Source of the DNA: Candidatus Nomurabacteria bacterium
GTDB lineage: Bacteria; Patescibacteriota; Minisyncoccia; Phycocordibacterales; UBA9973
DNA: 64,000 nucleotides
NCBI GenBank assembly: GCA_052035405.1
Contig: JBPOHQ010000007.1
Coordinates: 12,292 to 76,291 of the forward strand
Reading direction: 5' to 3'
The notes below the pieces were generated by a model. It was not told the origin of the DNA. It saw only the letters and a list, made by a program, of their open reading frames with translations, and did no database searches. Positions within the stretch are counted from its first letter, which is position 1. Every line of letters starts with the position of its first letter. The translations under genes and the position numbers were made by a program. Below, one piece after another: positions 5,201-48,715 of the stretch.

Positions 5201-8200
5201 CATTGTGGGCTTACCATATCAAGATACAGTTGTTGACCAAAGTTCAAATAAAGTTCGCGAGTCAAAGACATACTATGATACTCAATCATTAGGCACAGTC
5301 ACTGATGGGAATATAACAAAAGTAGAAAGATGGAAGACGGGCAGTACCTATGTAAACACTCAAAAGGCATATAACACTACCTACGGCATCCCAACTTCTT
5401 CTACTGACGAACGAGGTAAAACTACCACTTATAGCTATGATTTATACAACCTGTATCCAGCTACAGTCACAAATCCACTGTCTCAGGCAGTAAGTTATAC
5501 TTATGACTACTCACTGGGTAAACCAAAGCAATTCACTGACCAAAACAGCTTTGTATATCAGACTGTTTACGACGGACTAGATAGAGTAAAAGAAGAAAAG
5601 GTTCCAGACTTGTCTTCACCATATTCTCCAATAACTAAAACTGCATATACCTACACCGATACTTCTGGATCTATAGCTGTACAGAAAACAGCATACCTTG
5701 ATGGTTCAAACACAGCTCTTTCATATACATACTTTGATAAACTAAATCGACCAATCCAAACTCGAGTAGAAAATGAGAGTGATTATAACGTTAAAGATTT
5801 CTTGTACAATGCAGCTGGATTACTACAAAAGGAATCCTTACCATATTCTTCTTCAGGTACTGCTATTACCACGGCTAACAGCACTGCATCACTCTATCAT
5901 AATTTCACCTATGATCCATTACAGAGAATTTCTACACAAGTAAACAATGTCGGAACAACTTCATATGCCTATGACGACTGGAAGACATCTATAACTGATC
6001 CAAATACTAAGTTAAAACACTATTACAAAGACGCATACGACAATCTAATTCGTGTTGATGAAACAAATAGTGGAAGTACATATAGTACCTATTATGAATG
6101 GAATGGTAATAAACTATTGACTAAGATTACTGATGCATTAAGCAATATAAGAAGCTTTACTTATAATGGACTTGGTCGCAGACTAACAGCGGAAGACATT
6201 CATGCTTCTGCTGATGGTACCTATGGTACTTGGACATATACTTATGATGATGCTGGTAACCTAACTCAAAGTGTGAACCCGAATAGTCAAACTGTTAACT
6301 ACACTTATAATGATATTAATCAAGTATTAACAGAGAATTATACAGGCGATACCGGAACTGAAATTACATACACATATGGAGGGTGCACCAACGGTACAGG
6401 TAAACTTTGTAGTATAAACATGCTAAATGGTGCAGATACTGATTATACATACAATTCAAACGGTGGTATTGCATCAGAGGTTAAGACAATAAGCAGCACA
6501 GGATATACCACTTCATACACCTATGATAGACAAAGTAACATTCTAGAAATTACCAATCCAGACAGCTCTAAGGTTAAATACAATTTCAATACCGCTGGAA
6601 CGATGGAAACTATCCAAAGAAAAGAGAGCGGTGATGCCAGTTATACCAATGTGATTACTGACATGGACTATGGCCCACACGGAAAGAATACTTACAGAGA
6701 ATTTCTAAATGGCATAAATACAACCAATACCTTTGATGCCACCAAGTTATACAGACTAACTAGAATAAATACAATAAACCCAAATGATACTTCCTCTGGT
6801 TCACCGACAACCACCACATTCTACGCTAATTCTTCCGGTGACGGTCATATCGAGGCTTACAATTCAAACTGGGACACTGTGCACGACAATACAGCTGGTT
6901 CTTATATATCTCGTACCGCTACAACGAACGAGGTTCAAGTACGCAGACATTCAGGTAATTATTATATTTTTAGAGAATTCTTACCATTTGATACTTCTTC
7001 TTTGCCAGACAATGCTTCTATTAGTGCTACAGATCTAAGTATATATATTACTGATAAATCTAATGTAGATAACGATGGTGATGACTTTGTTACTGTGGTT
7101 CAAACATCTCAAGCAAGCACTAGTGAATTAGATTACGAAGATTTTGACCAAGCTGGTGCAGTAAATAATCCTACCGAAGGTGTTGCTACTTCCGATAGAA
7201 AAGATATTACTTCTATCAGTAATGGCTGGCTTGCATTCCCATTAAACAGCACAGGAAGGTCTTGGATTTCAACTACTGGTTACACAAAATTAGGTCTTAG
7301 GGAGGGTCATGATGTATTAGACAATACTATAACCAACTTTGACGACGATAATGATGTAAATAGTATCAAGTTTAGATCTGCTAATTATAGCGGTACATCC
7401 TCTGACCCTAAATTAGATGTGACCTATACTATTCCTGTTGCTACCGACTTTCAAGACATTAATTACACTTATGATGCTAACGGAAATATCACCCAAATAG
7501 TTGATAGCTCAGATACTAATGCTTCTAAAACCGTTGTCTACACTTACGATGATTTAAATCGAATGCTAACCGCTACCGCTACAGGCGTGGCGGGTGGTCA
7601 AAGTACTTACACTCATACCTATACATATAACGCAACAGGTAACATAACATCGAGTCCTTTTGGAACTTATGACTATAGCAGTAGTGGTTTTGCAAATCCA
7701 CATGCAGTAACATCAATTGTAAATGCTTTGAATAATAATCCGGTGATTACCTTAACTGGTTCTGACTTGATTTATCTGAATCTGGGCGATTCGTGGACTG
7801 AACCAGGCTACAGTGCCACAGATGCAGAAGACGGTAATTTAACTTCTAGTGTCACTGTGACTGGTTCGGTGGATACAAATACATTAGGAGTCTATAAACT
7901 TATATATAATGTCACAGACTCAAGCGGTCTACCTGCAGCAGGTGTGGCAAGAACTATATCTGTTAGACAGCCTTATAACCCAAAAGTAAAAACATTGGTT
8001 GTGGCTGGTGGTGGTGCAGGAGGAGCTGGAGATGGTTATAGCGGTGGCGGTGGAGGAGGTGCTGGTGGAGTAATTGAAGATAATGCTTTTGGAGTAACAG
8101 CTCAGAATTATAGTATTACTGTTGGTGATGGCGGTAGAGTGACCTATGCAGAGAGTGGAAGTAATTCAGTCTTCTCTACATTAACTGCTGTGGGTGGTGG

Positions 8201-32579: not shown

Positions 32580-34031
32580 ATGTTGAAAAGATATTTTGTA
32601 TTTGTGTTTAGTTTTGCCTCCTTATTATCTTTTAATTTTGTTGGTGCGAGTGTGGTTATAAATGAAGTTCAAATATCTCCGACAGGAGATAGATTTATTG
32701 AACTCTTTAATCAAGACGATACAGAGGTAAATCTAACTGATTGGTATATTCAAAGGAAGACGCAAACAGGCACGAGTTTTAGCTCGCTTGTATCCAGTAC
32801 AAATTTTGAAAACAAAAAAATCAAAGGGCATGAATACTTTTTAATTTCTAGAAGCTTACTCAATAATTCAGATATCGTAGTGAGCACCATGACACTCACT
32901 GATTCCAATGTGATTCAGCTTAAAAATCAAAGCGGTGATATCGTTGACAAGCTCTGTTGGGGAGATGTGACTGATTGTGGAACGGTTGTCGCAAACCCTA
33001 CTGAAGGGAAAAGTGTCGCTCGAGGTACAGGTGGAGTGGTTATAGGAACACCGACACCTAAAGCAGCGAATAGTACTTCAGTCGGTGCTTCGGAACAGCA
33101 ACCAAATGAAGGAGCTCAGACCGATACATCTACTGGAACTACTACATCAGGATCAGGTTCTTCTATAAGTAAAACTGTAGAAGGAAAAATAATTACAAAA
33201 GTTGCAGTTAAAAGTATCGCGTTTGCGGGACTGCAAACGTCATTTCAGGCAAGTACCTTAGGCAAGGATGGATTACCGCTTTTTTATGGTAGATACTACT
33301 GGAATTTTGGTGATGGTACCTCACAAGAGACAAAAGTAAGTGATGGCGGGATGGTATCGCATACGTATTTTTATCCTGGTGAATACACGGTAATTCTAGA
33401 ATATTACATAAATAGTTATGGAGAAATTCCAGATGCAACAGACACAGTAAATCTAAAAGTAACAAGCGTAGAAGTTTTTATTTCAAGTATAGGGGACCAG
33501 AAAGATTTTTATATTGAACTTTCAAACAACACTGGGAACGACATTGATATTTCAAAATGGATCCTCGTCTCGGGAGAAAAAAGATTCTCATTTCCAAAAA
33601 ATACTTATATAGGAGCAAAAAAGAAAACCACATTTTCTCCCGCAGTAACTGGTTTTACTTTCTCTGACAAAAATAATCTAAAGTTAGTAAATCAAGATTG
33701 GAAAACTATTTTTGATTACGGCTCTACTGTGAGACCTATTCAAGTTGTATTACCGATAACTTATTCTTCAAGTAAAAAAGTAGCTCAAAAAGAAAATAGT
33801 TCTTCGTATACAATCACATTAGGAGAAAAAGAAGAAGACATAGAAAAAGATACGTTGTTGAATGCTCTTGTTGCACGTGGTGTTCAAAATAATACACCAA
33901 AGACTGGTACGTACCTGTATATTATTTTCTTTATTATTTTAATTTCTCTTGCGGGTTTTCTGGTATATATTCTTCGTAGAAGAAAATTTGGGACCAAAGA
34001 AGGTGACGACTTTGACATTTTAGATGAATAA
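32580..34031 (+). CDS. Surface protein with two lamin-tail domains (LTD) and a PKD domain, C-terminal transmembrane anchor
   Basis: VVINEVQISPTGDRFIELFN (LTD); YYWNFGDGTSQE...HTYFYPGEYTV (PKD, ~33290-33410); C-terminal LYIIFFIILISLAGFLVYILRRRK. Confidence 0.65.
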   Translation: MLKRYFVFVFSFASLLSFNFVGASVVINEVQISPTGDRFIELFNQDDTEVNLTDWYIQRKTQTGTSFSSLVSSTNFENKKIKGHEYFLISRSLLNNSDIVVSTMTLTDSNVIQLKNQSGDIVDKLCWGDVTDCGTVVANPTEGKSVARGTGGVVIGTPTPKAANSTSVGASEQQPNEGAQTDTSTGTTTSGSGSSISKTVEGKIITKVAVKSIAFAGLQTSFQASTLGKDGLPLFYGRYYWNFGDGTSQETKVSDGGMVSHTYFYPGEYTVILEYYINSYGEIPDATDTVNLKVTSVEVFISSIGDQKDFYIELSNNTGNDIDISKWILVSGEKRFSFPKNTYIGAKKKTTFSPAVTGFTFSDKNNLKLVNQDWKTIFDYGSTVRPIQVVLPITYSSSKKVAQKENSSSYTITLGEKEEDIEKDTLLNALVARGVQNNTPKTGTYLYIIFFIILISLAGFLVYILRRRKFGTKEGDDFDILDE

Positions 34032-34382: not shown

Positions 34383-37300
34383 ATGGTAATAAATAAAAAA
34401 CAAAAAGGAAAAAGTAAATCCGTAAGGGCAATTTTGTTGATTGCTCTTTTCTCCTTTGTGTTTGTTTTAAACTCTATTTTCTATACTTTGTCTTTTGCAG
34501 CAGCAGGGGTTCCTCTTATAATAAATTTTCAAGGAAGACTCTTGAACTCTAGTGGTAACCTTTTGGGTGGAGCGTCCGGTACAAACTACTGTTATAAATT
34601 TTCTATTTACGATGCTGCGTCCGGTGGGTCTAAAATATGGCCAGCGGGTAGTCCTTCGACTATGACAATACTCACTCGTGAAGGAGTGTTCGATGCACCA
34701 GTCGGAGACGTTAGTGCAGGAGGGGATGCACTAACTTTAGCTTTCACTGATGACCAAGCTTTTATGAATGTCGAAGTATCTGCTATTGGAGCTGGAAGCT
34801 GTACTTCAGGAGATGAAAGTTTTGAGACTCTTACTCCACGTCAACAAATTGTTTCTTCTGCTTTTGCTATAAATTCAAAAACTGTTGGGGGATTCACTCC
34901 AGCACAATCTGCAACCGGTAGTCAGATACCAGTTCTCACTTCTGGGTCGCTCGTACTCGGAGATACAAATCCAGGGATTAAAGTTATAGGATCTAATACT
35001 CTCACTTTACAAAGTGGTGTTACTGGAGACATTCAGTTTTATAGTTCATCAAATAAAATTACTTCATCTGGTGATTTAACGATAGCAGGACTTGCAACTA
35101 CTGTCGGACTTACTTCTACTGGTAATGTTTCTATTACTTCTTCCAACACAACTCAAAATACCACATCATCTGCTCTTGCTGTGAACTTAAATTCACTTAC
35201 TTCCGGTACCGGAATATACGCAGCTTCTTCCTCTTTGACTTCCGGTTCACTGATGAATTTATCAATTACAGGTACAGGAGCACAAACAGGACAAAAGGGT
35301 TTAAATATTTCTCTGCAGGGTGCCAATGCTGTAGCAGGTCGAACCACTTATGGAGCGTATATTTCAAATGCTCATACAGGAACTTCGGTAAATATTAGTA
35401 CGTACTCTACGGCTAGTGGTGGTGCATTCAATGTGGGAGGGTATTTTGATTCTGCCGGTTCTGGAGCAACTAATACAGGTATTTATGCTTCAGCTTCAGG
35501 TGGTACAAATAATTACGCAGCTATTTTTGAAAATGGGAACGTGGGTATTGGAACTACTGCACCAACAAAAGCTCTGAGCATAGAAGGTGCGATGAATTTC
35601 TTAACATCCGGTGTTTCTCGTGGAATTGTTGGTCCGCCTACGTGGGACACTTCTTATGTAGCTATTCAAAATGGAACCTTAGCAGAAAGTACCTCTAATA
35701 CGGCTTTAGCTCAAAATGTATCTGGTGATACTATACTAAATGCCGCTACTGGTAGAACGCTTTACTTAAGGATAGGTAATGCTTCTTCTATGACATTGCT
35801 ATCTGGTGGTAATGTTGGTGTAGGGACAACAGCTCCAGATAAAGCTTTAGAAATCAATTCATCCACGGGTGCGAATTTACGTTTGACTTACAATGACTCA
35901 AATGGTTCTGCTACGAACTATGCAGATTTGCAAACTACAAGTGCTGGATATCTCACCGTAATTCCAAGTGGTGGACAGACAGATATAGGCACTAGAGCTG
36001 GAAGTGACGTGACGTACGGAACCTTAAATGTTTTTACCCCAGATGGAGCAACTAGGGGAATAAAGATAACTACAGGTGCAACATCTATTACTCAATCTCC
36101 GTTTAGCATCTATGATTCAGCCGGTTCTCTAAAAGCATCTATTGATACTTCATGGCGATGGAATTCTGTTGCAGGATTCGTTGCTCCAACTTTCTATACA
36201 GATACATGGCAGCCTTATACGGGTTCTGTTGACTTTAATATTAACCCACCTTCCACAAAAAATGTTAATTTAAATGTTGCAGGTGGAGGTCAGGTAGTAG
36301 TAACAGGTGGTATGAAAATTGGAACAACAACAGCTGCCTCTACCATTGTTGCAGCAAACACCACAGGTGGATCAAGTAATCCAGGAATTATTTTTGATAC
36401 AGCAGGGAATTACTGGGCAAACAGTCAACAGATATATTCTTTCCGAGAAAATGGAACAGAATTTTTCTCTATTGATGGTATCGGAAATATAAAAGCTCCA
36501 GCAGGAAATTTTACAACTTCAAGCACTACCCCAGAATCCGGAACCGACTCTTTCATTGGTCATGGTATGCGTCGTGCAAATACTGCTGCTGGATTTAATT
36601 TCGCATGGGGCGAATCAATAGTGTCGACCACTGAGCCAGGAATAGACTTATTCCCGATAGGTAGTAGTCATATAACAAATGGAATTCTTTTTAGATTATC
36701 TAAAGACAGTGCACGCACTGACGTGGCTTTACAAATAAATGGAGATGGAGGCATAGGGGTAAACACTACTCCGACTTCAGATTATTTATTTAATATAAAT
36801 GGTAATACTACAAATGATAACAGTAGAATATTAAATATAACTCAAGCAAACAATTCAGATGAAGACAGTAGTTCTATATATATAACAGCCACCCCAACAT
36901 TAGGATCAATAGCAGCTGAGCGCACTGTGAGAGGATCTTATCTGAGTTTGACTCCAAGCTTAACCATTGCTGGGGGTGGTATTTCTGGTAATGTTTTTGG
37001 TGCAGAAACTGCTATAGATTTATCTTCTGTTACTTTAGGAAATACAACGGGTGGTATAAATTCTGTGAATTATGGTAGCAGTGTGAACATTACAGGTACT
37101 CCAGTACTTAATGACACTCTTGCTGGTGATGACACTTTTCTAAGTGTATACGGTGCCTCTACAAATGTTCAAGTTTCTCCTACGTTAACAAATATTGGAA
37201 ATGCTGAGTTTCTAAGTTATGGAGCTTCTTTTAATAATGCTTCTAGTTCGCTTGGGAATGCAAATTTGTTAAGTCAAGCAACCGGTATTTATGTTTCTTC

Positions 37301-40300
37301 TGCCGGAGCCTTAACAACAACTGGAACGACATCACATTATGGTGCACAAATTACTGCAGGGGGTACTGCAGATACAAATTATGGATTATATGTTAGTAGT
37401 TCTGGAGCCACTACAAATTATGCTGCGATATTTGCATTAGGCAATGTAGGTATAGGTGATGTGGACCCGGCATCACTCTTTACAGTAGGTGCAGGGGATT
37501 TATTCCAAGTAAATAGTAGTGGTGCCATAGCTGCAGCGACAGGAGTTACTTCATCTGGTACCATTACATTCTCTGGACTTGGAGGAGGTGGATCACAGTG
37601 TGTTCTTACAGACAACTCAGGAATACTTTCTGCTGGTAGTTGTGGAGGTGGAGGAGCAACTTTGGACAGTGCTTATACAGCAGGTAATACAATAGGTACA
37701 GACAGTGGTAATAATGTAATTATAAACTTAGCCGAGGTGGCAACTCCGACAGAGTTTGTGATAAATAATCTAGATACAGCTGGAGTCAATGCAGTGCAGA
37801 TAGACAATGGTATAGCTTCAGGAACACTGACAAATGGACTTTTGTTAGAGCAGTCTGGTGCAGGCACTATGACTTCCGCTATTCAGATAACTGAGACAAC
37901 AGGCACTATCACAAATGGTATTTCTGTTACTGGAACTCTTACAAATATTTTAAATACCCCTACTCTTGATATTACAGGAGCAGGAGCGATAACAGGAGTG
38001 ACTGGTATATCAGGAGGTGATGTAGTAATAGATTTTAATGATTTTGTTGTAGACGTAGAAGGTTTTACTGTTATTGCACCAGACGCTACGGGAGATGCAT
38101 TGAGTATTATCTTTGGTGCAGCTACTGATTTGCAAGCAATTGTGATAGATGCTGCAACAAATGCGTCTACTCAGACAGAAGGGTTAATACAAATAACTTC
38201 AGATACTTCTACTGACACAGCTATTGCTGGAGTAGGACTCACTTTAGTGGCTGTTGATGATGATGCTGCAGATATACTTTATGGTCACCGTACAGATATA
38301 ACAATCCAAGAAGATACTACAGACAAGGATACAGTATATGGAAACTACGTAGGATTTACTCAAAATGATCCAAACTCAACAGGGTATGGATTTGCTGTTA
38401 TAGCAGAAGATGCTGGTACTTCACCTCTTGCTGTAGGTCTGCTTATTCAAAATCTCCAAGCCACTGATATAGACATAACAGATGGTATTTTGATACAAGC
38501 TACTACAAATGATTCTATTTTAGATGCTATAGATGTATCAGATGCAGAGATCACGAACGCTATAAACATAGGCACGAATTTACTTGTAGCATCTGGAGAC
38601 TCTATCAATGACTTCACTGGCAATGGCTTAGTTGTATCTTCAAATGCTCTTACTGTAGACACCACTCTTGGAGCTGATGGGCTTTCTGCTACGACTTCAT
38701 CTGGTTCAGGACTTGAAACATTGGCGACAGGAGTAGCATTACTCCAAGGTTGTGCACATGATGAAGTTTTGAAATGGAACGAAACTTCAGACGTTTGGGC
38801 TTGTGGGAAAGACAATGATTTAATTACTTTGTCTTGGGCTGAAACAAATTTGACTGCTTCACAAACTGCTCTACAAATGGACAGACCAAACGCTACTAAC
38901 TTAAACACAACTACCTCTGAGGCATACATGCCTTATGCTGGAAGTATCGTTGGTATAGAAGTCGGAGGTAGTGCTGCTCGTACTGCTGGTACTGCTACTT
39001 TTGAAGTATATAAAAATGGTGCTGCTACAGGATTAACTGCTGTTATAAATGGAACAAATACTCAATACGTAAGAACTACTCAAGTTCCAGGGACTGATAC
39101 TTTTGCAGCAGGAGATTATATAGATGTGAGAGAGACTACTACAGGAACCTTTGCTCCTACTACTTCTGAATACGTAGCTACTGTGTGGCTAGAGATAAAC
39201 GAAGGAGCTGACTTAGCAGAGTTATACAATATAGAAGATGTCAGTATTGAGTCAGGTGATGTTGTTGCAATACACCCATTCCTTGAAAATGGCATAATGA
39301 AAAGTAATAAAGCGTATCAGAAAGAAATTTATGGAGTAATTGCAACCAGACCGGGGGTTATTTTAGGTCAAAAAGAAATAGGAGACATAAGCATGTCTCG
39401 TGCGGTTGCTCTAGCTGGACGTGTGCCAGTCAAGGTAACTAATTCAAATGGTGTTATTAAAAAAGGTGATTATCTTACAAGTTCAGACATACCAGGAGTT
39501 GCAATGAAATTGACTAAAAATGGTATGTCTATTGGTATTGCCATGGAAGATTTTTATGGAGATGATGTTGGTAAAATAAATATGTATGTTAAAAATGGAG
39601 TAGTAAATGGTGATACAGAAAGTGTATTAGAAAATTTAGAAGGTTTGTCAGGAATAGAAACAAATAAAATAACCCTAAAGGGGCTGAATAGTATAGAACT
39701 AACATCAGAAAGTATAAGTGCACTTTCTAGTGCGATAGATTCTCTCAAATTTGAGAATTCAAAACAAGCAGATGATGTAATTATGCTTAATAACAAGAAC
39801 GAATCATTTGAAAATAAAATAATAAATATAGAGTCTGCTATGAGTTTAGGCATGTTTGAAAATAAAAATAATCTTAATTTAGAAACGTTAGTGGTGGGAG
39901 GGGAGGTACAGTTTAATGGACTAACATTCTTTAACTCAAGTACGGTGTTTAATCGAAATGTTACATTTGGTAATGTTGTAGAATTTACAACTCCACCACT
40001 TTTCAACAAAGACACAGCCGGTTTTGCGGTAATAAAAGCAGGAAGTAAAAAAGTGGAAGTAGTTTTCGAAAATCCGTATATAGCTCAGCCTGTAGTGAAT
40101 GCGTCTATTTCTTTAGAGGATTCAGTTAATCCCGCTACAGAGACTACCCCAGAAGTAGTGAATACTATGACAGACGAACAAGTTGAAGAATTTTTTAGCC
40201 AAAATATAGAGTACTTGATTACAAATAAAACTGAGAAAGGTTTTGTAATTAGAATAAATAAAGTAATTACAGAAGACGTACTATTCTCATGGTCAGCTTT

Positions 40301-40640
40301 TGCCGTAAAAGATCCAAAGATTTTTGAAAGTGTGTTGCCAGGACTTGTAATCGAGCAAGTTATTGAAGAAAATGAACCTACTCCTTCAAAGGTCATTCCA
40401 ACTCAAAACTCAACACCAGATGAAGCAATAATAGAAGAAACATCAGTATCCGAAGAAACAAATGAGACTATCGGTGCTCCAGAAGTTTTTGATACAGCAG
40501 AAACACCAGAACCTTCAACAGTTACAGATACACAAGAAAATCTAAATGCACAGGTGACAGAAGTTCCTGCAGTGTCTACTTTCAAAGAGACAAGAGCAGT
40601 AGAAATGAGTAATGCACCAGAGACTTTGATTGCGGAGTAG
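34383..40640 (+). CDS. Giant (2085-aa) membrane-anchored tail-fibre-like surface protein with an internal peptidase-S74 intramolecular-chaperone (IMC) domain
   Basis: N-terminal transmembrane helix; recurring [14 protein letters not shown](S/E)I motifs (fibre-type repeats); IMC domain [23 protein letters not shown]...[12 protein letters not shown] at 39201-39600; a further ~340 aa follow. Confidence 0.8.
39201..39600 (+). other. Peptidase S74 / 'chaperone of endosialidase' intramolecular-chaperone domain (internal)
   Basis: DLAELY...GDVVAIH...[13 protein letters not shown]...GRVPVKV pattern. Confidence 0.65.
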
Positions 40641-40682: not shown

Positions 40683-41096
40683 ATGTTAAGAAAAAAATCA
40701 TTTAGAATTCTGTTGTTATTAGTTACTTTAGGAGCGATAGGCCTTGCAGGGTATTTTTATTATGAACTCAATAATCTTAAAAATAATCCTCAATCAATAA
40801 CTAAGAAAGAGGTTTCAGACCTTGTGGATAAAGTTTCTCGATTAGTTTTGTTACCCGAGAAAGAGATACCCACAGTAGCCACTGTGTCAGATTTAGAAAA
40901 ACTCAAAGATCAAAAGTTTTTTGCTAAAGCTCAAAAAGGAGACAAGGTACTCATCTATGCAGAAGCAAAGAAAGCATATTTATATTCTGTAACAAAAGAC
41001 AGAGTTATAGATATTGCACCCCTCAATTTAGGAAACAAAAAAGAATCAAATACAGAAATACAAAATAGTAATGACAGTAGTCTTATTATAGAGTAG
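40683..41096 (+). CDS. Small membrane-anchored protein, paralogue 1
   Basis: N-terminal transmembrane helix; PTVATVSDLEKLKDQKFFAKAQKGDKVLIY closely matches the next ORF. Confidence 0.5.
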   Translation: MLRKKSFRILLLLVTLGAIGLAGYFYYELNNLKNNPQSITKKEVSDLVDKVSRLVLLPEKEIPTVATVSDLEKLKDQKFFAKAQKGDKVLIYAEAKKAYLYSVTKDRVIDIAPLNLGNKKESNTEIQNSNDSSLIIE

Positions 41097-41130: not shown

Positions 41131-41547
41131 ATGGGCTACATGGCATACTTAAATTTTTATCTAAAAAAGAGAAATATTCATATGTTTGTTTTTTTGATAC
41201 TTTTAGTATTGGGTATTTTCTTTTTCAAAAATAAATTAAGTCTCGTTGGTCAGAGCACAGATAACAAGACAGTAAGTGAAAGTAAAATGTTAGCAAGAAA
41301 GGTGGGCAAGATAATGTTTGTGCCGAAGGATGAAGACCCTACCATAGCTACAGTTACAAATCCAGAAAACTTAAGAGGACAATCTTTTTTTGTGGATGCA
41401 AAAGTGGGTGATAAAGTTTTAATCTATAAAAATGCGAAAAAAGCTATTTTATATGATCCAATAGCTGATAAGATTATCACTATTGCACCACTTATCCTAG
41501 GTGAGCAAGATTCTACCGGATTAAATACTCCTGTATTTAAGTATTAA
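41131..41547 (+). CDS. Small membrane-anchored protein, paralogue 2
   Basis: PTIATVTNPENLRGQSFFVDAKVGDKVLIY; same architecture as 40683-41096. Confidence 0.5.
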   Translation: MGYMAYLNFYLKKRNIHMFVFLILLVLGIFFFKNKLSLVGQSTDNKTVSESKMLARKVGKIMFVPKDEDPTIATVTNPENLRGQSFFVDAKVGDKVLIYKNAKKAILYDPIADKIITIAPLILGEQDSTGLNTPVFKY

Positions 41548-41563: not shown

Positions 41564-42586
41564 ATGAGAAATATTTTTAAAATTAAAAAATTAAACATTT
41601 TAAAGACGACCCTATATTTCTTTTATATTTCTTTTATATTTCTTTATTTTTTTTCTAATGGTCATGCTGTTGATTTAACTAGTACTAATTTTATCGTTCG
41701 AGATCCAATTATAGGTACTGGTGGAGACTATGGTACTTCTAGTAGCTTTAAATTATATTCAGCAGGTAACACCCTTCTCTCTGGTGTAGGTTCTTCCGCT
41801 ACCTATATAGGACATTATGGTTTTTTATACTATCCTTTTATAACTTTAGGTACTTTGTCTGCTGTAGCTTCTGGGGCTGATGCAAACCTTTCTTGGCCAG
41901 TATCTGCTGCAGGTCAAGGCTGGACAGTATCCGGATATAATACTGGTAAAGCTGCAGTTTCTGGCGGGCCATATACATATACTTCAGTAGGTAACGTAAC
42001 AAGCTATTCATATACTGGACTGACTCCAGGAAATTATTGTTTTGTTTTGCAGACATTGGATGGTCTCGGAAATGTAATTGGTACTTCAAATGAGTCTTGT
42101 ATAACCATACGTCCTACCCTTACTTTTTCGATACCTACTACAAGTGTAAATTTTGGTACCCTTTCATCTACTGGTCCAAGATATGCAAATGCAACGACGG
42201 GTAGTGCTACTGATGTGGTTGCTCACACTATGCAGGCTAGTAGTAATGCTTCTTCAGGATACGTCATTACCTACAAAGGTCCTACATTAACTTTCGGTAC
42301 ACATACGATAAATGTTGCTTCTAGTGTTTCTGGAGATGGTTCGGCGGGCACAGAACAATTTGGTATGTCTTTGTCTACCACCGGGTCAGCTACCATACCA
42401 GCAGCATATCAACAATCAGGACCAACTAGAACTTTCGTAGACAACACTACTACGAGCATAGCTAGCACCTCAGGGATTACTTCGACAGAGACATTTAGCA
42501 ATCATTACTTAGCAAACATTTCACCTGTTACAGAAGCAGGACCCTACTCTACCACAATAACTTTCATTGCCACAGGAACTTATTAG
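41564..42586 (+). CDS. Secreted Thr/Ser/Gly-rich beta-rich protein (adhesin/fibre-subunit-like), C-terminus ...TITFIATGTY
   Basis: Signal peptide; shared C-terminal motif with the next ORF. Confidence 0.45.
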   Translation: MRNIFKIKKLNILKTTLYFFYISFIFLYFFSNGHAVDLTSTNFIVRDPIIGTGGDYGTSSSFKLYSAGNTLLSGVGSSATYIGHYGFLYYPFITLGTLSAVASGADANLSWPVSAAGQGWTVSGYNTGKAAVSGGPYTYTSVGNVTSYSYTGLTPGNYCFVLQTLDGLGNVIGTSNESCITIRPTLTFSIPTTSVNFGTLSSTGPRYANATTGSATDVVAHTMQASSNASSGYVITYKGPTLTFGTHTINVASSVSGDGSAGTEQFGMSLSTTGSATIPAAYQQSGPTRTFVDNTTTSIASTSGITSTETFSNHYLANISPVTEAGPYSTTITFIATGTY

Positions 42587-42647
42587 TTATCCACATTAAA
42601 AATAATGGTGCAGTTAGTTATTTATTGGTATAATCTAATTAATTTTT

Positions 42648-43892
42648 GTGCAAGTCGCACAATTTTATTGTTTAATAAAATTATTATCAGTTAGTATTAA
42701 AAATATGAAAATTTTAAAAAAAATTACCAGTTTATCACTTATTATGATGTTAATGGTACTAACATCAGGTGTTGTTAATGTTAATAAAGCTTTAGCCGCT
42801 TCTATGACGGCTTCCAAAGATACAGCTACAAGACTAAAAATAAGTACCACAGCTGATCATACTATAGTGACTACTCTCCCTACTGGTGTTGATTTTGATT
42901 CTACGGGTAATACTGATATGTTGCGTTTTGATTTTGCTTCTACCTTCAGTACTTCAGGTACATGGGTCACAGGAGACTTCACATTTAACGATGGTACAGC
43001 TAGAACGGTTCAAGCTGTTGCACAAGGTGCGGGTACCGTAGATTGTACAGTGTCAGCTGGTGTGAACAATGTCTGTGTGGCTATAGACACTACCGGTTTT
43101 GCTTTTTATGTAAAACCTTCTGCTACGTACACAGCATCAGCAACTGCTGCAACTATAACATTTACTATTGATGGAACTACTACTGATGGAACTTTAACAA
43201 ACCCTGCTTCAGCAGGTTCAGCAGCTCTTGATCTTGCAGCTTGCGATGAAGTAGCTTCATGTACAACTTCATTTACTTCTTCTCATACAGCAGCCACCGC
43301 TCTTGGAATTGCAGATGATGATCAGGTTACCGTGACTGCCACAGTGAATTCTTCCCTTACTTTTGACTTAGATGCTAACACTTCTGGAACTGGAGACACG
43401 GTAGCCCCATATACTGTGGCTTTAGGTACTATTACTACTGTAGATACTCGTGTGTCTGGTGCAACAGATTCAGTAAACAGAATAATGATGGATCTAGATA
43501 CTAACGCTGCTTCTGGTGTGGTTGTAACTGTAAAAGATGCAAACGGCACAAACGGTCTTGTCTCTACTTCTGTACCGGCTGATAATATAAACAGTGCTGA
43601 CGGTACTATGGCTGATGGAACAGAAAATTATGGACTTTGCGTTATTTCCGTAACTCAAACCCTTGGTACACTTTCAAAAGCATCTCCATATAACTCAGGA
43701 ACATGTGCTGCTGATTCAGAAACAAATGATATACAGGCTTTAACGACTTCAGGAGAGAACATCGTAAGTTCAGCTGCTCCTATATCAGGTGGACGAGCAC
43801 AAATAGCGGTAAATGCTGCTATAAGTGGTATTACACCTGCTCACTCTGACTATACAGATACCCTAACCTTTATTGCAACTAGTACTTTTTAA
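42648..43892 (+). CDS. Secreted Thr/Ser/Ala-rich protein, paralogous C-terminus ...TLTFIATSTF (probable start at ATG 42706)
   Basis: Signal peptide MKILKKITSLSLIMMLMVL; composition and C-terminal motif like 41564-42586. Confidence 0.45.
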   Translation: MQVAQFYCLIKLLSVSIKNMKILKKITSLSLIMMLMVLTSGVVNVNKALAASMTASKDTATRLKISTTADHTIVTTLPTGVDFDSTGNTDMLRFDFASTFSTSGTWVTGDFTFNDGTARTVQAVAQGAGTVDCTVSAGVNNVCVAIDTTGFAFYVKPSATYTASATAATITFTIDGTTTDGTLTNPASAGSAALDLAACDEVASCTTSFTSSHTAATALGIADDDQVTVTATVNSSLTFDLDANTSGTGDTVAPYTVALGTITTVDTRVSGATDSVNRIMMDLDTNAASGVVVTVKDANGTNGLVSTSVPADNINSADGTMADGTENYGLCVISVTQTLGTLSKASPYNSGTCAADSETNDIQALTTSGENIVSSAAPISGGRAQIAVNAAISGITPAHSDYTDTLTFIATSTF

Positions 43893-43905: not shown

Positions 43906-44931
43906 TTGATTATAATGAAAAATTATTTAAGTGACAGAAAAATTTCGCTAATAACTTCTCTATTTTTTGCACTATTTATTTTATTCAGTGCTAACCAGGT
44001 GTTTGCTCTTAGCTTATCTCCTGTTAGATTTGAGTTACAAGGTGATCCCGGACAATCTGTATCAGGAGAAATAATCTTAACTAACGAAACTGACTACCCT
44101 CAGACTTTCTATTCTTCTTTCTCAAACTTTGAAGCTCAAGGTGAGTCAGGTAACCCTGCTTTTGTTGTTCCTAAAAATGATTTAGGTACATGGATATCTA
44201 CTTCAGATATTGTTAATCTAGAACCACATGTTACTAAAAATGTTCCGTTCACTATAGATATACCAAAAGATGCTGAGCCAGGAGGTCATTTTGCTGTTAT
44301 CTTTTTTGGAGATACACCCGTAAATAATACTGGTGGTGGTGCAGTATCAGTTGGATCACAAACCGGTGCACTTGTCTTACTTTCTGTTAGTGGAGATGTA
44401 AAACAAGCAGGAGGAATGACAGCTTTCAACTTAAAGAACAATAAGCATTTTTATAATACTTTACCAGTAGATTTTGAATACAAATTTAAAAACGATGGAG
44501 GTGACCGCATTAAACCAGATGGTTTAATTACAGTTAGAAATATAATTTTTTATCCAAAAGTTAAGTTAGATGCTAACCCAAGTGAAGGGAATATACTTCC
44601 TGGAAGTACTCGAAAGTTTGAGATTAGTTGGATAAATTATTCTAGACCAAAAGACTTTACTCCTTCTTCAAATGTTTTTACTAGATATATAGAAATGGTT
44701 AAATATCAATGGCAAAATTTTGCTTTTGGTCCTTACTTTGCAAAAATACATCTTTCTTATGCTGGTTTAAATTTTGGTGACGGTAGTACCTTGTTTTTCT
44801 TTGTATTCCCTTGGCAACTTCTTATATTGATAGCTTTTGTATTAGGTGGATTGTATGTAATTGGAAAGAAAGTTCTCATACGTTACAATGCCCACATTAT
44901 AGAAAAAGCTAAACAAAATATGAAGTTGTAA
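43906..44931 (+). CDS. Cell-surface protein with C-terminal transmembrane anchor, DUF916/DUF3324 (CscA-like) architecture (tentative)
   Basis: Signal peptide; LSLSPVRFEL...PKDAEPGGHFAVIFF; C-terminal helix LLILIAFVLGGLYVIG + KK. Confidence 0.4.
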   Translation: MIIMKNYLSDRKISLITSLFFALFILFSANQVFALSLSPVRFELQGDPGQSVSGEIILTNETDYPQTFYSSFSNFEAQGESGNPAFVVPKNDLGTWISTSDIVNLEPHVTKNVPFTIDIPKDAEPGGHFAVIFFGDTPVNNTGGGAVSVGSQTGALVLLSVSGDVKQAGGMTAFNLKNNKHFYNTLPVDFEYKFKNDGGDRIKPDGLITVRNIIFYPKVKLDANPSEGNILPGSTRKFEISWINYSRPKDFTPSSNVFTRYIEMVKYQWQNFAFGPYFAKIHLSYAGLNFGDGSTLFFFVFPWQLLILIAFVLGGLYVIGKKVLIRYNAHIIEKAKQNMKL

Positions 44932-44942
44932 ACTTTTCTTTA

Positions 44943-45851
44943 ATGAAACATATAATATTCAAAAAGACAATTATTGGTGTTTCGCTATTTTTCTTTTTAA
45001 TTTTTTCTATTTATTCGTATACTTTTGCTTTTGATATAACTTTTAGCGAAGATGTGAGTGTAACAGCACAAGTAGGTTCTATCATTACTTCTCCTAGTGG
45101 AGGGTCTGGATCCGGTTCGGATAATCCTATAATGTTGCCAGAGACAAGTGTGCTCTTTTCTGGTATAGCTTACCCAAATGCCATAGTTACTTTACTTAAA
45201 GATGGAGTAGAAAAAACTAAAGTAACGGCAAACAAAGATGCTTATTTTTCAATAACATTGTTCGAAGAGTATGAGAATAATGCTCTATATACTCTTTTTG
45301 CAAAAGATATAGAAGGCGGGCGTTCATTACTGTTAAATTATCCAATTGTAATTCATACTGGGTACACAACTTATGTTAATGGTATATTGTTTCCCCCTAC
45401 TATAAGTACAGACAAATTAGAAGTTGCATTAGGTGATTATCTGTCCGTGTTCGGATATGCTGCACCAGAAGAAGATATGAAGATTTTTTTTGAAGGACCT
45501 CAAAAAAAATCTTTTGCTTTAAAATCAAATAAATTAGGAAAGTATGCACTTACACTACCTTTATCTGGTTTAGTAAAAGGAGATTATGTTGTTTATGTAA
45601 AATATGAAGCACACACTAGAGTTAGTAAATTGATTAGATTCGTAATTGGAGAAAAGAATGTTCTAAATACAAAAGAAATTACTGATATACCAGGGGATTG
45701 TAACGCAGATAGAGCCATAAATCTTACAGATCTTTCTATCTTATCTTTTTGGTATAAAAGATTAAATCCACCTAAGTGTGTAGACGTAAACGCAGATAAA
45801 TTGATAGATTTAGTAGACTTCTCTATAGTAGCTTTTTATTGGACAGGATAA
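44943..45851 (+). CDS. Dockerin-containing surface protein (N-terminal anchor/signal, C-terminal type-I dockerin pair)
   Basis: DCNADRAINLTDLSIL and DVNADKLIDLVDFSIV give two D-x-N-x-D-x-x-I-(N/D)-x-x-D calcium-binding repeats (45685-45848). Confidence 0.6.
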   Translation: MKHIIFKKTIIGVSLFFFLIFSIYSYTFAFDITFSEDVSVTAQVGSIITSPSGGSGSGSDNPIMLPETSVLFSGIAYPNAIVTLLKDGVEKTKVTANKDAYFSITLFEEYENNALYTLFAKDIEGGRSLLLNYPIVIHTGYTTYVNGILFPPTISTDKLEVALGDYLSVFGYAAPEEDMKIFFEGPQKKSFALKSNKLGKYALTLPLSGLVKGDYVVYVKYEAHTRVSKLIRFVIGEKNVLNTKEITDIPGDCNADRAINLTDLSILSFWYKRLNPPKCVDVNADKLIDLVDFSIVAFYWTG

Positions 45852-45857
45852 TTACAT

Positions 45858-46727
45858 ATGATCAAAAAAATTATTTTATTTTTAGTTATACTGTTTTCTT
45901 TTTCTACAAATGCACATGCTGCATCTCTTTTTTTGGATTCACCAACAGATATTAAAAAAGACCAAATTTTTGAAGCTAATATAAAGTTAGACTCTATGGG
46001 AGAAGTGGTAAACTCTTTTTCTATTAGTTTAGCGTACCCAGTAGAATTGCTTACCTTCAATGGATATAAGGAGGATTCTACTGTGATAAAGATGTTTATA
46101 GAGAAGCCAAAGGTTGTTAATGGTAAAATTTCTTTTAGTGGTATTATTCCCGGTGGTATTTCTGGATTTTACGATCCCAATAAAAAAGATGTAAACACAC
46201 TACCAGTTATAACATTACTTTTTAAACCAAGGAATGCTGGTGAAGGAGTCTTCTCTTTTACAGACATACAAATACTTAAAAATGATGGTTTGGGTACTAG
46301 CTTGTCTACCCAAAGTTCTGATAAAAATATAAAGGTAAATTCTGTAGAAGAATCTATAAAAGAAGAAAAGGACAGCATAAAGCCTCTTCCTTTTAATATA
46401 CAGTTAATAGAAGCATCTAGCCTGTCAAATACTCCACTCATGCTGTATTTTAATACAAGGGATTTAGATTCTGGAATAAAAAATTATCAAATAAAAATTA
46501 ATAATACTGTTTGGATGAACGCAGAGAGTCCTTATGTCATCTCAAGAGGATTTTTTGCAAAAAACTTCACAGTTAGGGCTTTTGATCATGCTGGTAACTA
46601 CGAAGACGCTCATCTTCGTTTGGAGGGTAAATCGTTTGATTTTATTACCCTAATTATATTAGTATTAATCGTGTTTGTCTTATGTCTCTCTTATCTGTTA
46701 ATATGGAGAAATGGTAAATTCGATTAG
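45858..46727 (+). CDS. Cohesin-like domain protein, C-terminal transmembrane anchor
   Basis: Signal peptide; ~140-aa domain FSISLAYPVELLTF...LLFKPRNAGEGVFSFTDIQILKNDG fits the cohesin consensus; C-terminal transmembrane helix. Confidence 0.5.
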   Translation: MIKKIILFLVILFSFSTNAHAASLFLDSPTDIKKDQIFEANIKLDSMGEVVNSFSISLAYPVELLTFNGYKEDSTVIKMFIEKPKVVNGKISFSGIIPGGISGFYDPNKKDVNTLPVITLLFKPRNAGEGVFSFTDIQILKNDGLGTSLSTQSSDKNIKVNSVEESIKEEKDSIKPLPFNIQLIEASSLSNTPLMLYFNTRDLDSGIKNYQIKINNTVWMNAESPYVISRGFFAKNFTVRAFDHAGNYEDAHLRLEGKSFDFITLIILVLIVFVLCLSYLLIWRNGKFD

Positions 46728-47853
46728 AAATCTTAATATATTTATATTTATCGGAGTACTTTTGTTAAGTCCAAGTATTTCTTCTGCAGATAATTCTAGG
46801 TTGTTTTTTAGCAATCCTCCAAAACAAATAGAAGAAGGAGAGAGGGTTACTTTTGATATAAATATTGAATCCAAAACTCAATCCATAAATGCTATATCTG
46901 GTGTTGTATATTTTCCTTCTGAATTATTGCAAGTTGTATCTGTTTCTAAAGAAAAGAGTTTAATCAATTTTTGGACACATGAGCCAAAAGTTTTTAGAGA
47001 CAAAATATCTTTTGAAGGAGTCATTTTAAATCCTGGGTTTCAAGGGTCTAAGAGTAAAATTTTTAGTATTACCTTTGAAGCTAAAAATAAAGGTACAGCA
47101 AATCTAGGCTTTACTGAGGGTTCAGTCCTTGCAAATGATGGTATGGGTAGCAATGTTCTTACCTATCTAGATAGGGTGATTTTTAAAATAATAGGTGTAA
47201 CGTTAAAGCCTGATACCACTGTACCTCAGCTACCTAAAAAAGATTTAGCTGAAATACCTAAAATAAAAAAAATTGCAAAATTACCCATAATCACAGACTA
47301 TCCATCTTTTGTGAACTCAAAAGAAAAATTACATTTAGAAGGTGAAGGTGAACCAAATGCACTGACAAAAATCGTCTTTGAAGATGTGTCTGTAAAATCT
47401 ATTGGAGAGAGGTTTATGGAATTTGTGCAGACAGAAAAGAAAAAGTTAGACAGCGTATTGGTTAAAAATAATGAAGTTGGTAAATTTGATTACGTTAGTC
47501 CCTCTGATCTATTAGCTGGTGTTTATAACGCTACTCCCTTTTTAATAGAAGAAGAAACAAACACTGAAAAACCAGGTTTTGGTGTTCAACTTTTTGTGAA
47601 GGACAGTAAAATAGTTAATTACCTCATTGTAGCCATAAATGTACTTGGGTTACTTATTCCTATTGTTACATTATGTGTGATAGTATATTTCATACCATGG
47701 TATTCATGGAGAAAAATGAGGGTTCTGAAAAGGAAATTAGGATTAGAAGAAGAAAAAATAGAGCTTATAGGTATTGACTTAGAAAGACAGAGTAATCAAA
47801 GGGTGGACAGGAGTGTCTCTTTTAAAGAAGAAAATATATTAAAAAAAGAATAG
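46711..47853 (+). CDS. Cohesin-like domain protein 2, C-terminal transmembrane anchor (paralogue of 45858-46727)
   Basis: NAISGVVYFPSELLQV...ITFEAKNKGTANLGFTEGSVLANDG aligns with the preceding protein. Confidence 0.5.
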   Translation: MVNSIRNLNIFIFIGVLLLSPSISSADNSRLFFSNPPKQIEEGERVTFDINIESKTQSINAISGVVYFPSELLQVVSVSKEKSLINFWTHEPKVFRDKISFEGVILNPGFQGSKSKIFSITFEAKNKGTANLGFTEGSVLANDGMGSNVLTYLDRVIFKIIGVTLKPDTTVPQLPKKDLAEIPKIKKIAKLPIITDYPSFVNSKEKLHLEGEGEPNALTKIVFEDVSVKSIGERFMEFVQTEKKKLDSVLVKNNEVGKFDYVSPSDLLAGVYNATPFLIEEETNTEKPGFGVQLFVKDSKIVNYLIVAINVLGLLIPIVTLCVIVYFIPWYSWRKMRVLKRKLGLEEEKIELIGIDLERQSNQRVDRSVSFKEENILKKE

Positions 47854-47863
47854 TTGCATCTAA

Positions 47864-48715
47864 ATGAAAGATAAAATAATTTTAAAAATTATATATGTTT
47901 TTGCTTGTATCGGTTTTATTTTCGTATTGGTTTTTCTATTAATGCAATTTGGGTTACTTAATGTTCGTGGTTCTATTAAAGAGAGAAATCAATTTTTTGG
48001 ACAAGTAAAGAAAACAGACAATACAAACGGATGCTTGCATGCCCCAGAGACGCAAGATGAAGAAGTGCTGTGTGCTTGGGTTGATACCGCAGAATGGGAA
48101 GTGGTTCGCGAAGGTTTAAAAAAAGATGCATCTATAATACAAGACGTCTCGCAGAAAACTGGTGTGTCGGCTCGGATGATTGCCGCATCTGTTGTCCCTG
48201 AGCAGATAAGGTTCTTTACTTCTAATAGGGAAAGTTTTAAAAGATATTTTGAGCCTATGAAACTTTTAGGTTCAATGTCTCAGTTTTCTCTTGGTGTGTC
48301 TGGTATCAAACAAGAGACTGCGAATGATATAGAAAAATATGCAAATGACTCAACTTCACCGTTTTATCCTGGAGGAGGATTCGCAGAACTGCTTGTCTAT
48401 CCAAATGGTGTAAACCACGACACGGAACTTTACAATAGGCTTACTGATTCAAAAAACCACTATTATTCTTATCTTTATACTGCCATTTATTTAAAAGAGA
48501 TAGAAACACAATGGAAGAATGCTGGGTTTGAAGTAGGTGATAGGCCAGATGTTTTGGTTACACTCTTTAATCTTGGTTTTAAAGCATCCAATCCTAAACC
48601 AAATCCACAAGTTGCTGGGTCTCTAATCTATGTCGGAGGTAAAAATTATACTTTTGGAGTACTAGGTAGTTCATTCTATAATTTAAATGAACTTATAGAT
48701 ATATTTCCAAATTAA
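47864..48715 (+). CDS. Membrane-anchored hypothetical protein
   Basis: N-terminal transmembrane helix; no family recognised. Confidence 0.4.
   Translation: MKDKIILKIIYVFACIGFIFVLVFLLMQFGLLNVRGSIKERNQFFGQVKKTDNTNGCLHAPETQDEEVLCAWVDTAEWEVVREGLKKDASIIQDVSQKTGVSARMIAASVVPEQIRFFTSNRESFKRYFEPMKLLGSMSQFSLGVSGIKQETANDIEKYANDSTSPFYPGGGFAELLVYPNGVNHDTELYNRLTDSKNHYYSYLYTAIYLKEIETQWKNAGFEVGDRPDVLVTLFNLGFKASNPKPNPQVAGSLIYVGGKNYTFGVLGSSFYNLNELIDIFPN

Follow-up and report, generated by a model that had tools for sequence, protein, structure and literature searches.

A dockerin-bearing candidate base subunit and two membrane-anchored cohesins encoded within a probable Pam-type pilus operon of a patescibacterium

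Introduction

Patescibacteria (the Candidate Phyla Radiation, CPR) account for a large share of bacterial diversity, and most of them seem to live attached to host cells. The closest described relative of the system considered here is the Pam pilus system of Candidatus Mycosynbacter amalyticus (Troman et al., bioRxiv 10.64898/2026.03.03.709456; NCBIfam NF058581, NF058579), in which the protein PamR, comprising an N-terminal strand, two fibronectin type III (FnIII)-like domains, and a transmembrane (TM) helix, is proposed to terminate and anchor the filament; the preprint places Pam pilins mainly in the Saccharimonadia and Microgenomatia, with no mention of cohesin or dockerin. Herein, we analyse a 64-kb stretch of the Candidatus Nomurabacteria contig JBPOHQ010000007.1 (hereafter the window; GC content ~35%), the closest relatives of which are Patescibacteria metagenome-assembled genomes throughout, with attention to three open reading frames (ORFs) of the same direction (+ strand, 44943-47853), designated g4, g5, and g6. 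We consider it probable that these genes constitute the anchoring end of a pilus operon of the Pam type (i.e., specific to the CPR and based on donor-strand exchange) in a Paceibacteria-like patescibacterium, in which g4 would serve as a base or terminator subunit held by dockerin-cohesin pairing.

Several properties are shared between this locus and the Pam system: (i) both are CPR-specific, (ii) both lack an usher and possess TM-anchored proteins, chaperone-like in the Pam system and putatively so here, (iii) both have a giant protein encoded nearby, "tail-fibre-like" in the Pam system and possibly so here, and (iv) g4 resembles PamR, the proposed terminator tying the filament to the membrane, in having an N-terminal strand and two immunoglobulin (Ig)/FnIII-like domains. 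Unlike PamR, g4 has no TM helix and ends in a dockerin, with two additional genes encoding TM-anchored cohesins. The two systems further differ in that the operon considered here extends across lineages of Paceibacteria type and many others of the CPR, as opposed to the Pam range given above, and in that the window showed no ATP synthase genes.

To our knowledge, and within the literature searched, no non-cellulosomal cohesin-dockerin pair is known to anchor a pilus. Pairs of this kind, such as the NanJ/NagJ toxin complexes of Clostridium perfringens (PDB 2vo8, 2w1n, 2o4e) and that of Archaeoglobus fulgidus (2xdh), have partners that are glycoside hydrolases/toxins or are uncharacterised and, unlike the locus described here, are without a cohesin on a C-terminal TM helix inside a pilus operon. 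The type II interaction of Clostridium thermocellum, i.e., that of the CipA dockerin with the SdbA/OlpB cohesins, is similar in that an extracellular assembly is kept on the cell by its C-terminal dockerin, which docks into a cohesin attached there; in contrast to the cellulosome, the present locus encodes no multi-cohesin scaffoldin, carbohydrate-binding module (CBM), enzymes, or S-layer homology (SLH) domains, and would combine a TM-helix anchor with a pilus-like cargo. Dedicated last subunits that join a fibre and cannot accept another, as proposed here for g4, are represented by FimI and PapH in chaperone-usher pili and by basal pilins such as SpaB in sortase pili; since such a terminator accepts no further subunit, growth stops and the fibre becomes fixed to the cell. 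Lastly, the WxL-interacting proteins (WxLIP; DUF916, DUF3324, and a TM helix) of Firmicutes WxL clusters (PMC10599100) share Ig-like domains, a C-terminal TM helix, and weak similarity with g3, encoded immediately upstream of g4. Unlike in these clusters, no WxL domain was detected in the pilins g1 and g2, and WxL clusters have not been described with cohesin or dockerin genes.

Results

The genes g4-g6 are situated within a run of + strand genes with intergenic gaps of 6-13 nt (g5 and g6 share 17 nt), and are the last three conserved genes of an operon with the order small TM protein, pilin(s), g3, g4, g5, and g6 (Table 1). A first-pass annotation, made from the sequence alone, had correctly located the three ORFs and assigned them to one dockerin protein and two membrane-anchored cohesin-like paralogues. 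It had also viewed the trio as a free-standing "mini module"; this view has to be abandoned, as the three genes instead form the 3' half of a tightly packed and widely conserved operon that also encodes the Pam-type pilins g1 and g2 along with g3.

The duplicated dockerin with which g4 had been proposed to end is real. Its two calcium-binding loops, DCNADRAINLTD and DVNADKLIDLVD, are the sole matches to a strict dockerin Ca-loop pattern across all six frames of the window, and the sequence layout is that of a type I dockerin, in which a segment of ~22 residues occurs twice in tandem, each copy comprising an EF-hand-like loop of 12 residues (D1, N/D3, D/N5, D12) and a subsequent helix. More than 146 homologues of g4 were found, each of ~300 aa. 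Among 28 members of this family, 25 matched Pfam Dockerin_1 (PF00404) at E<=0.01 (best E=1.8e-8) and 25 matched Big_6, while the Ca-ligand (D/N) positions are at least 90% conserved across 81 orthologues. The top two PDB sequence matches of g4 are themselves dockerins, with marginal E-values. In an AlphaFold2 model of g4 (predicted local distance difference test score 85.4), the segment at residues 250-302 adopts a loop-helix-loop-helix arrangement (helices 261-269 and 290-301); apart from its signal peptide, the protein has no TM helix. A chance EF-hand-like motif was also considered, and was rejected in view of the family-wide Dockerin_1 matches together with the full loop-helix duplication.

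In turn, g5 and g6 are paralogous cohesin-fold proteins on C-terminal TM anchors, as the first-pass annotation had held. Their N-terminal ~150 aa share 27% identity (E=4e-14), and a hidden Markov model (HMM) built from the cohesin domains of the g5 family matches g6 with E=9e-32. Searches of Pfam, NCBIfam, and PDB with either single sequence returned nothing useful. At the family level, Pfam Cohesin (PF00963) was matched by 7/23 g5-family members (best 1.9e-4) and 6/23 g6-family members (best E=4e-7); a g5-family profile retrieved cohesins as its top four PDB matches (E ~0.03), with that of the g6 family being uninformative. Several orthologues bear the NCBI name "cohesin domain-containing protein". 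The domain has the fold of a cohesin, a ~140-aa nine-stranded beta-sandwich (jelly-roll), and the structures closest to g5/g6 are dockerin-binding cohesins, non-cellulosomal ones among them. Given this fold and family evidence, the cohesin identity stands despite the failure of the Pfam HMM on the two individual proteins, an outcome that makes up one half of what the first-pass annotation had named as speaking against it. A C-terminal TM helix is present in each of g3, g5, and g6.

Both paralogues display invariant loops that are unusual for cohesins, namely SFSGIIPGG and KNDGLGT in g5, and SFEGVILNPG and ANDGMGS in g6. The TM helix of g6 and its juxtamembrane tail (aa 328-349, 47692-47757; consensus YFIPWYSWRRMR-LKKKLGLEEEK) show almost no variation among family members, exceeding the cohesin domain itself in conservation, which hints at a cytoplasmic partner or at oligomerisation. 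In distant lineages (loci L046-L083), g6 homologues are 570-630 aa in length, i.e., ~200 aa longer, and carry a g5-like second domain and a g4-like Ig domain between cohesin and TM helix, amounting to a longer socket stalk.

Gene order was read in 80 related loci via iterated HMM searches of six-frame ORFs, revealing the recurrent order g0a (the small TM protein), pilin(s), g3, g4, g5, and g6. In all 69 loci with at least 2.5 kb of sequence downstream of g4, a cohesin gene follows directly 3' of the dockerin gene, and two cohesin genes are present in 68 of these 69. The tethering of g4 to the membrane that had been proposed in the first-pass annotation would thus be the most economical reading of the gene pairing. 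Pilin genes lie immediately upstream, within one tightly packed operon, in 30/30 loci that encode a strand-type g4 (see below) and have at least 4 kb of upstream sequence. Across the window and ~1.2 Mb of related loci, a dockerin HMM matched g4-type ORFs only and a cohesin HMM matched g5/g6-type ORFs only. Locally, one dockerin and two cohesins make up a closed set in which other cargo is not indicated, contrary to the earlier suggestion that further proteins might be tethered in the same manner. No glycoside hydrolase or CBM domains were found in g1-g7, in keeping with the non-cellulolytic context previously put forward. A true cellulosome was considered as a separate candidate and rejected on account of there being one cohesin per protein, a single dockerin, no glycoside hydrolase, no CBM, and no multi-cohesin scaffoldin. 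By pattern search, g4-family relatives occur in at least 585 species-level genomes; among the matches listed, the lineages include Nomura-, Paceibacterota, Minisyncoccia, Portnoy-, Brenner-, Wolfe-, Falkow-, Magasanik-, and Colwellbacteria, as well as Microgenomatus. Loci L018 and L061 are from Minisyncoccia genomes with the operon.

With respect to the pilins, g1 scored 70.1 bits against NCBIfam CPR_Pam_pilin_C (NF058581; cutoff 55, E=2e-19) and gave a partial match to PamT (E=1.4e-13), while the C-terminal domain of g2 is homologous to that of g1 (27% identity, E=6e-4). The g3, g5, and g6 proteins matched none of the NCBIfam Pam models. Based on profile matches, g3 weakly resembles membrane-anchored WxLIP and PamC/PamD-type chaperones: Pfam WxLIP_PGBD was matched by 24/32 g3-family members (best E=3.8e-5), a weak but consistent signal, and the best PDB matches of the g3 family were to EfmWxLIP1 (9i25/9i1y, E=0.04). 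WxLIP proteins consist of two Ig-like domains and a TM helix, with insertion of a beta-hairpin strand into a partner predicted (PMC10599100); this architecture is the one described for PamC and PamD. Given the weak but consistent likeness of g3 to the WxL-interacting proteins (DUF916) of Firmicutes, the CPR Pam pilus chaperones and WxL surface-protein clusters may be evolutionarily related.

The N-terminus of g4 suggests a connection to these pilins. Directly after the signal peptide, alignment of the g4 family revealed a strand of the form E-x-V-S-V-x-A-x-V-G (EDVSVTAQVG in the window protein) followed by a Gly/Ser/Pro linker. In the AlphaFold2 model, this strand is unanchored and belongs to no domain, with a disordered region (aa 45-67) succeeded by two confident beta-sandwiches and the dockerin. 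When formulated as a donor-motif pattern, [VI][STEN][VI][STGNY]A.[VI], the strand was found at positions 20-60 in 45/80 g4 proteins. The same pattern was found in 34/65 g2-type pilins at the linker between N- and C-terminal domains, always just ahead of the "LTFDLD" start of the acceptor domain, i.e., a conserved alternating-hydrophobic motif, detected from sequence only, at the position expected of a donor linker. Elsewhere, the motif is ~50-fold rarer (13/3125 other ORFs), with no instances in g5, g6, or g0a; 3 of the 38 g1-type pilins contain it, none of them at the interdomain linker, which reads ESCITIRP in g1 of the window. The strand of g4 is kept even where the region following it has been replaced by a Cys-rich module. 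The presence of a donor strand in the absence of an acceptor domain is the logic of a terminator, and the treatment of g4 as arbitrary cargo in the first-pass annotation gives way to a different picture, in which an orphan strand matching the pilin donor strand, together with a two-Ig stalk, makes g4 look like a pilus base subunit. As a separate observation, the Cys-rich module (CGDG..EQCDG..C..GF.GG.L.C...C.F....C plus a long poly-Gly tract) is located between the strand and the first Ig domain in distant g4 relatives, falling within the first ~100 aa (loci L049, L056, L060, L063-L068, L071, L076, and L079).

Domain fusions separate the components into two sets. In 9 loci (from 9 genomes), a single protein combines the head of g1 with the linker, stalk, and dockerin of g4, with the fusion heads matching the g1 head HMM over positions ~5-171 (E 1e-47 to 1e-62, 32-49% identity). 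All 9 heads run directly into the poly-Gly linker, the acceptor domain of g1 and the orphan strand of g4 both being absent; gains and losses of the two elements thus coincide, as would be anticipated if they bind each other. Of the 9 loci, 7 have at least 4 kb of upstream sequence, and among these neither pilin genes (0/7) nor g3 (0/7) were detected, while g5/g6-type genes are retained wherever downstream sequence exists. It follows that the pilins and chaperone form one co-varying unit and the dockerin and cohesins another, and that g5/g6, which persist without pilins or chaperone, track the dockerin and not polymerisation. That g5/g6 might themselves be PamC/PamD chaperones was also considered, and was excluded by their cohesin fold and by this persistence in the absence of pilins and g3.

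In certain distant loci (L055, L061, L065, L067, L070, and L075), short "classical" pilins of 175-250 aa are encoded 5' of g3, each consisting of a signal peptide, a donor-type strand at the N-terminus, and a domain of acceptor-like character, lacking an N-terminal domain and displaying g1/g2-like C-termini. In L067, L068, and L070, a TM-anchored ORF of ~196-198 aa occupies the g3 position alongside such short pilins, with a g3 HMM match in L070 only. A single weak match was obtained with the NCBIfam Pam models on the pilin-like ORFs of distant loci, and these ORFs are thus pilin-like by architecture only.

Discussion

Folds and families, gene order, co-occurrence, motif distribution, and domain fusions are direct observations on these loci, and from them we propose the following mechanism. 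All components would leave the cell via Sec, upon which the TM-anchored chaperone-like g3 would hold the acceptor domains of the pilins. The tip would be formed by g1, which carries a head and an acceptor domain and no donor strand, with g2 subunits then polymerising via insertion of the linker donor strand of each into the acceptor domain of the preceding subunit. With a donor-type strand at its mature N-terminus and no acceptor domain, g4 would cap the proximal end of the fibre and thereby end its growth. The flexible Gly/Ser linker and two-Ig stalk of g4 would lead to its Ca-binding dockerin, which would plug into the cohesin domain of g5 and/or g6, these being held in the cytoplasmic membrane by their C-terminal TM helices. 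The cohesin-dockerin pair would thus stand in for the TM helix that PamR itself contributes in the model for Ca. Mycosynbacter amalyticus. In this scheme, we infer the physical dockerin-cohesin contact, the insertion of the g4 donor strand, and the order of assembly.

Cohesins and dockerins bind each other very tightly and in a Ca-dependent manner, and their complexes are mechanically strong; these properties suit a load-bearing anchor. The combination of a proposed dockerin-bearing terminator and two TM-anchored cohesins, all conserved in a donor-strand pilus operon, appears to be new to the literature searched. More tentatively, the plug-and-socket arrangement may represent a third and hitherto unrecognised way of anchoring donor-strand pili and similar fibres of the cell surface, beside ushers and sortases, in many Patescibacteria. 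There, the two cohesins would form a membrane socket, g6, by way of its nearly invariant TM helix and tail, would connect the fibre base with a partner in the cytoplasm (e.g., to regulate release, sense force, or signal during attachment to a host), and the split (pilus) and fused (single-chain fibre) versions would reflect a modular evolution of appendage length upon one conserved anchor; this extended scenario is possible, albeit doubtful in its entirety.

Various points weigh against a cohesin-anchored pilus base. The donor motif is short, and within a genome the strand of g4 and the linker of the pilins do not co-vary to a significant degree (5.0 vs 4.8 of 13 identities, with 802/5000 shuffles reaching the observed value). 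The stalk matches of g4 are to generic Ig/FnIII folds, owing to which the likeness of g4 to PamR is given here as one of architecture. For the other components, g2 is without a match to the NCBIfam Pam models, the assignment of g3 depends on weak E-values, and the Pam system itself is known from the 2026 preprint only, with an AlphaFold-based assembly model (10.64898/2026.03.03.709456). Pfam HMMs, which the first-pass annotation had named as the means of checking its call, gave a divided answer: on the individual proteins, Dockerin_1 remained sub-threshold for g4 (E=0.0016, 19.0 bits, gathering score 22.9) and Cohesin gave no match at E<=1 on either anchor, while at the level of families both domains were matched. 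The predicted contact between the g4 dockerin and the cohesins likewise draws on family identity and co-occurrence, and the model does not account for why there should be two cohesin genes for one dockerin gene.

These points leave room for other explanations. The two cohesins could mean that there is more than one ligand, in line with an autonomous, cellulosome-style display module in which g5/g6 would be generic membrane scaffolds showing g4, and perhaps other dockerin proteins, independently of any pilus. Such a module would be compatible with the cohesin and dockerin identities, which hold in either case, and with the 9 genomes that keep it as a head-stalk-dockerin fusion without pilin or chaperone genes. 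We nonetheless regard it as unlikely, considering that no other dockerin ORF was found in the window or in ~1.2 Mb of related loci, that pilin genes sit immediately upstream within a single packed operon in every one of the 30 loci with a strand-type g4 and at least 4 kb of upstream sequence, and that the orphan donor-type strand of g4 would be left without a role. Slightly less likely again is that g5 and g6 are not dockerin receptors at all, and act as pilus-assembly factors (i.e., a platform, usher substitute, or chaperone) or as cell-wall binders, with the dockerin of g4 being a Ca-stabilised module that binds something else. The unusual invariant loops of both paralogues and the failure of the Pfam Cohesin HMM on each would fit this explanation, as would the near-invariant TM helix and tail of g6, suggestive of more than passive anchoring, and the three TM-anchored accessory proteins of M. 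amalyticus. Set against this are the retention of g5/g6 with the dockerin protein in loci lacking pilin or chaperone genes, the closest structures being dockerin-binding cohesins (including non-cellulosomal ones), and the chaperone-like component already supplied by g3.

The most improbable of the explanations considered is that g4 is a stand-alone adhesin or matrix protein, its N-terminal strand being an ordinary structural element and its co-location with pilins a matter of shared regulation as opposed to physical linkage. The stalk is indeed a generic Ig tandem akin to that of many adhesins, and the shortness of the motif and lack of significant strand/pilin co-variation would be in line with such a function. 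However, the strand is parted from the first domain by a disordered linker, lies outside of any domain, and is kept beside the Cys-rich replacement module; moreover, the ~50-fold enrichment of the motif in just two positions, namely the N-terminus of g4 and the linker of the pilins, and the joint loss of strand and acceptor domain in the fusions both speak against this explanation.

If the dockerin protein does form the base of the pilus, a concrete and testable anchoring mechanism would be available for pili on usher-less cells in at least 585 species-level genomes, and cohesin-dockerin biology would extend from enzyme display to organelle anchoring. Four families of "hypothetical protein" in CPR genomes would thereby gain a functional annotation. 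The locus also offers small expressible domains, i.e., a 55-aa dockerin, 140-aa cohesins, and a 19-aa donor peptide.

Locus layout and neighbouring genes

Table 1. Coordinates of the operon genes and of their domains and motifs in the window.
Feature	Position (nt)	Strand	Residues (aa)	Description
g0a	40683-41096	+	137 aa	small protein, paralogous to g0b; N-terminal TM helix
g0b	41131-41547	+	138 aa	small protein, paralogous to g0a; N-terminal TM helix
g1	41564-42586	+		tip-type Pam pilin; signal peptide, head, C-terminal acceptor domain
g1 head	41669-42121	+	36-186	
g1 acceptor domain	42143-42583	+	194-340	
g2	42648-43892	+		shaft-type pilin; N-terminal domain, donor linker strand, C-terminal acceptor domain (aa 241-414)
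g2 donor linker strand	43314-43352	+	223-235	DDDQVTVTATVNS
g3	43906-44931	+		membrane-anchored chaperone-like protein; Ig-like domains, C-terminal TM helix (aa 296-318)
g4	44943-45851	+	302 aa	proposed pilus base/terminator subunit; signal peptide (aa 1-29)
g4 orphan donor-type strand	45048-45086	+	36-48	EDVSVTAQVGSII
g4 linker			49-66	Gly/Ser linker
g4 Ig-like domains			68-137, 141-236	two domains
g4 dockerin	45684-45848	+	248-302	
g4 Ca-binding loop 1	45696-45731	+		DCNADRAINLTD; helix after loop
g4 Ca-binding loop 2	45783-45818	+		DVNADKLIDLVD; helix after loop
g5	45858-46727	+	289 aa	short membrane-anchored cohesin; signal peptide first
g5 cohesin domain	45918-46340		21-161	
g5 second domain			181-255	small beta domain
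g5 TM helix			259-284	cytoplasmic end of ~5 aa
g6	46711-47853	+	380 aa	long membrane-anchored cohesin; signal peptide first
g6 cohesin domain	46798-47205		~30-165	followed by conserved middle beta domain
g6 TM helix			303-327	
g6 cytoplasmic tail			328-380	charged, highly conserved

The paralogues g0a and g0b probably belong to the operon, with homologues located 5' of pilins in 33 related loci. Such homologues are also found directly 5' of the fused head-dockerin genes, and may thus go with the head and not with polymerisation. Between g1 and g2, a terminator-like hairpin with a T-run (42646-42662) overlaps the listed GTG start of g2, the real start of which may be an ATG at ~42705; the hairpin does not rise above shuffled expectation, and a scan for promoters and terminators likewise returned nothing exceeding it.

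Downstream of g6, separated from it by 10 nt, g7 (47864-48715) encodes a 283-aa protein that has a TM helix at its N-terminus and is matched by neither Pfam nor NCBIfam models; as no homologue was found in any of the 80 related loci, g7 is placed outside of the conserved operon. Immediately 5' of the operon, 34383-40640 encodes a secreted protein of 2085 aa with no Pfam match; giant proteins homologous to it lie beside the operon in no fewer than 12 related loci. It could be the counterpart of the "tail fibre-like protein" to which the Pam preprint assigns a central place in pam neighbourhoods. Further upstream, the 483-aa product of 32580-34031, in which a lamin-tail domain (LTD, E=1.4e-20) and a PKD domain are combined with a TM helix at the C-terminus, constitutes another anchored surface protein near the operon. 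At the 5' end of the window, 2271-10232 encodes a 2653-aa protein with SpvB, FG-GAP, RHS-repeat, Bact_surface_Ig-like, and Gly_rich_2 matches and a C-terminal Peptidase_M15_3 domain, which looks like a giant protein of the toxin or cell-wall-hydrolase type.

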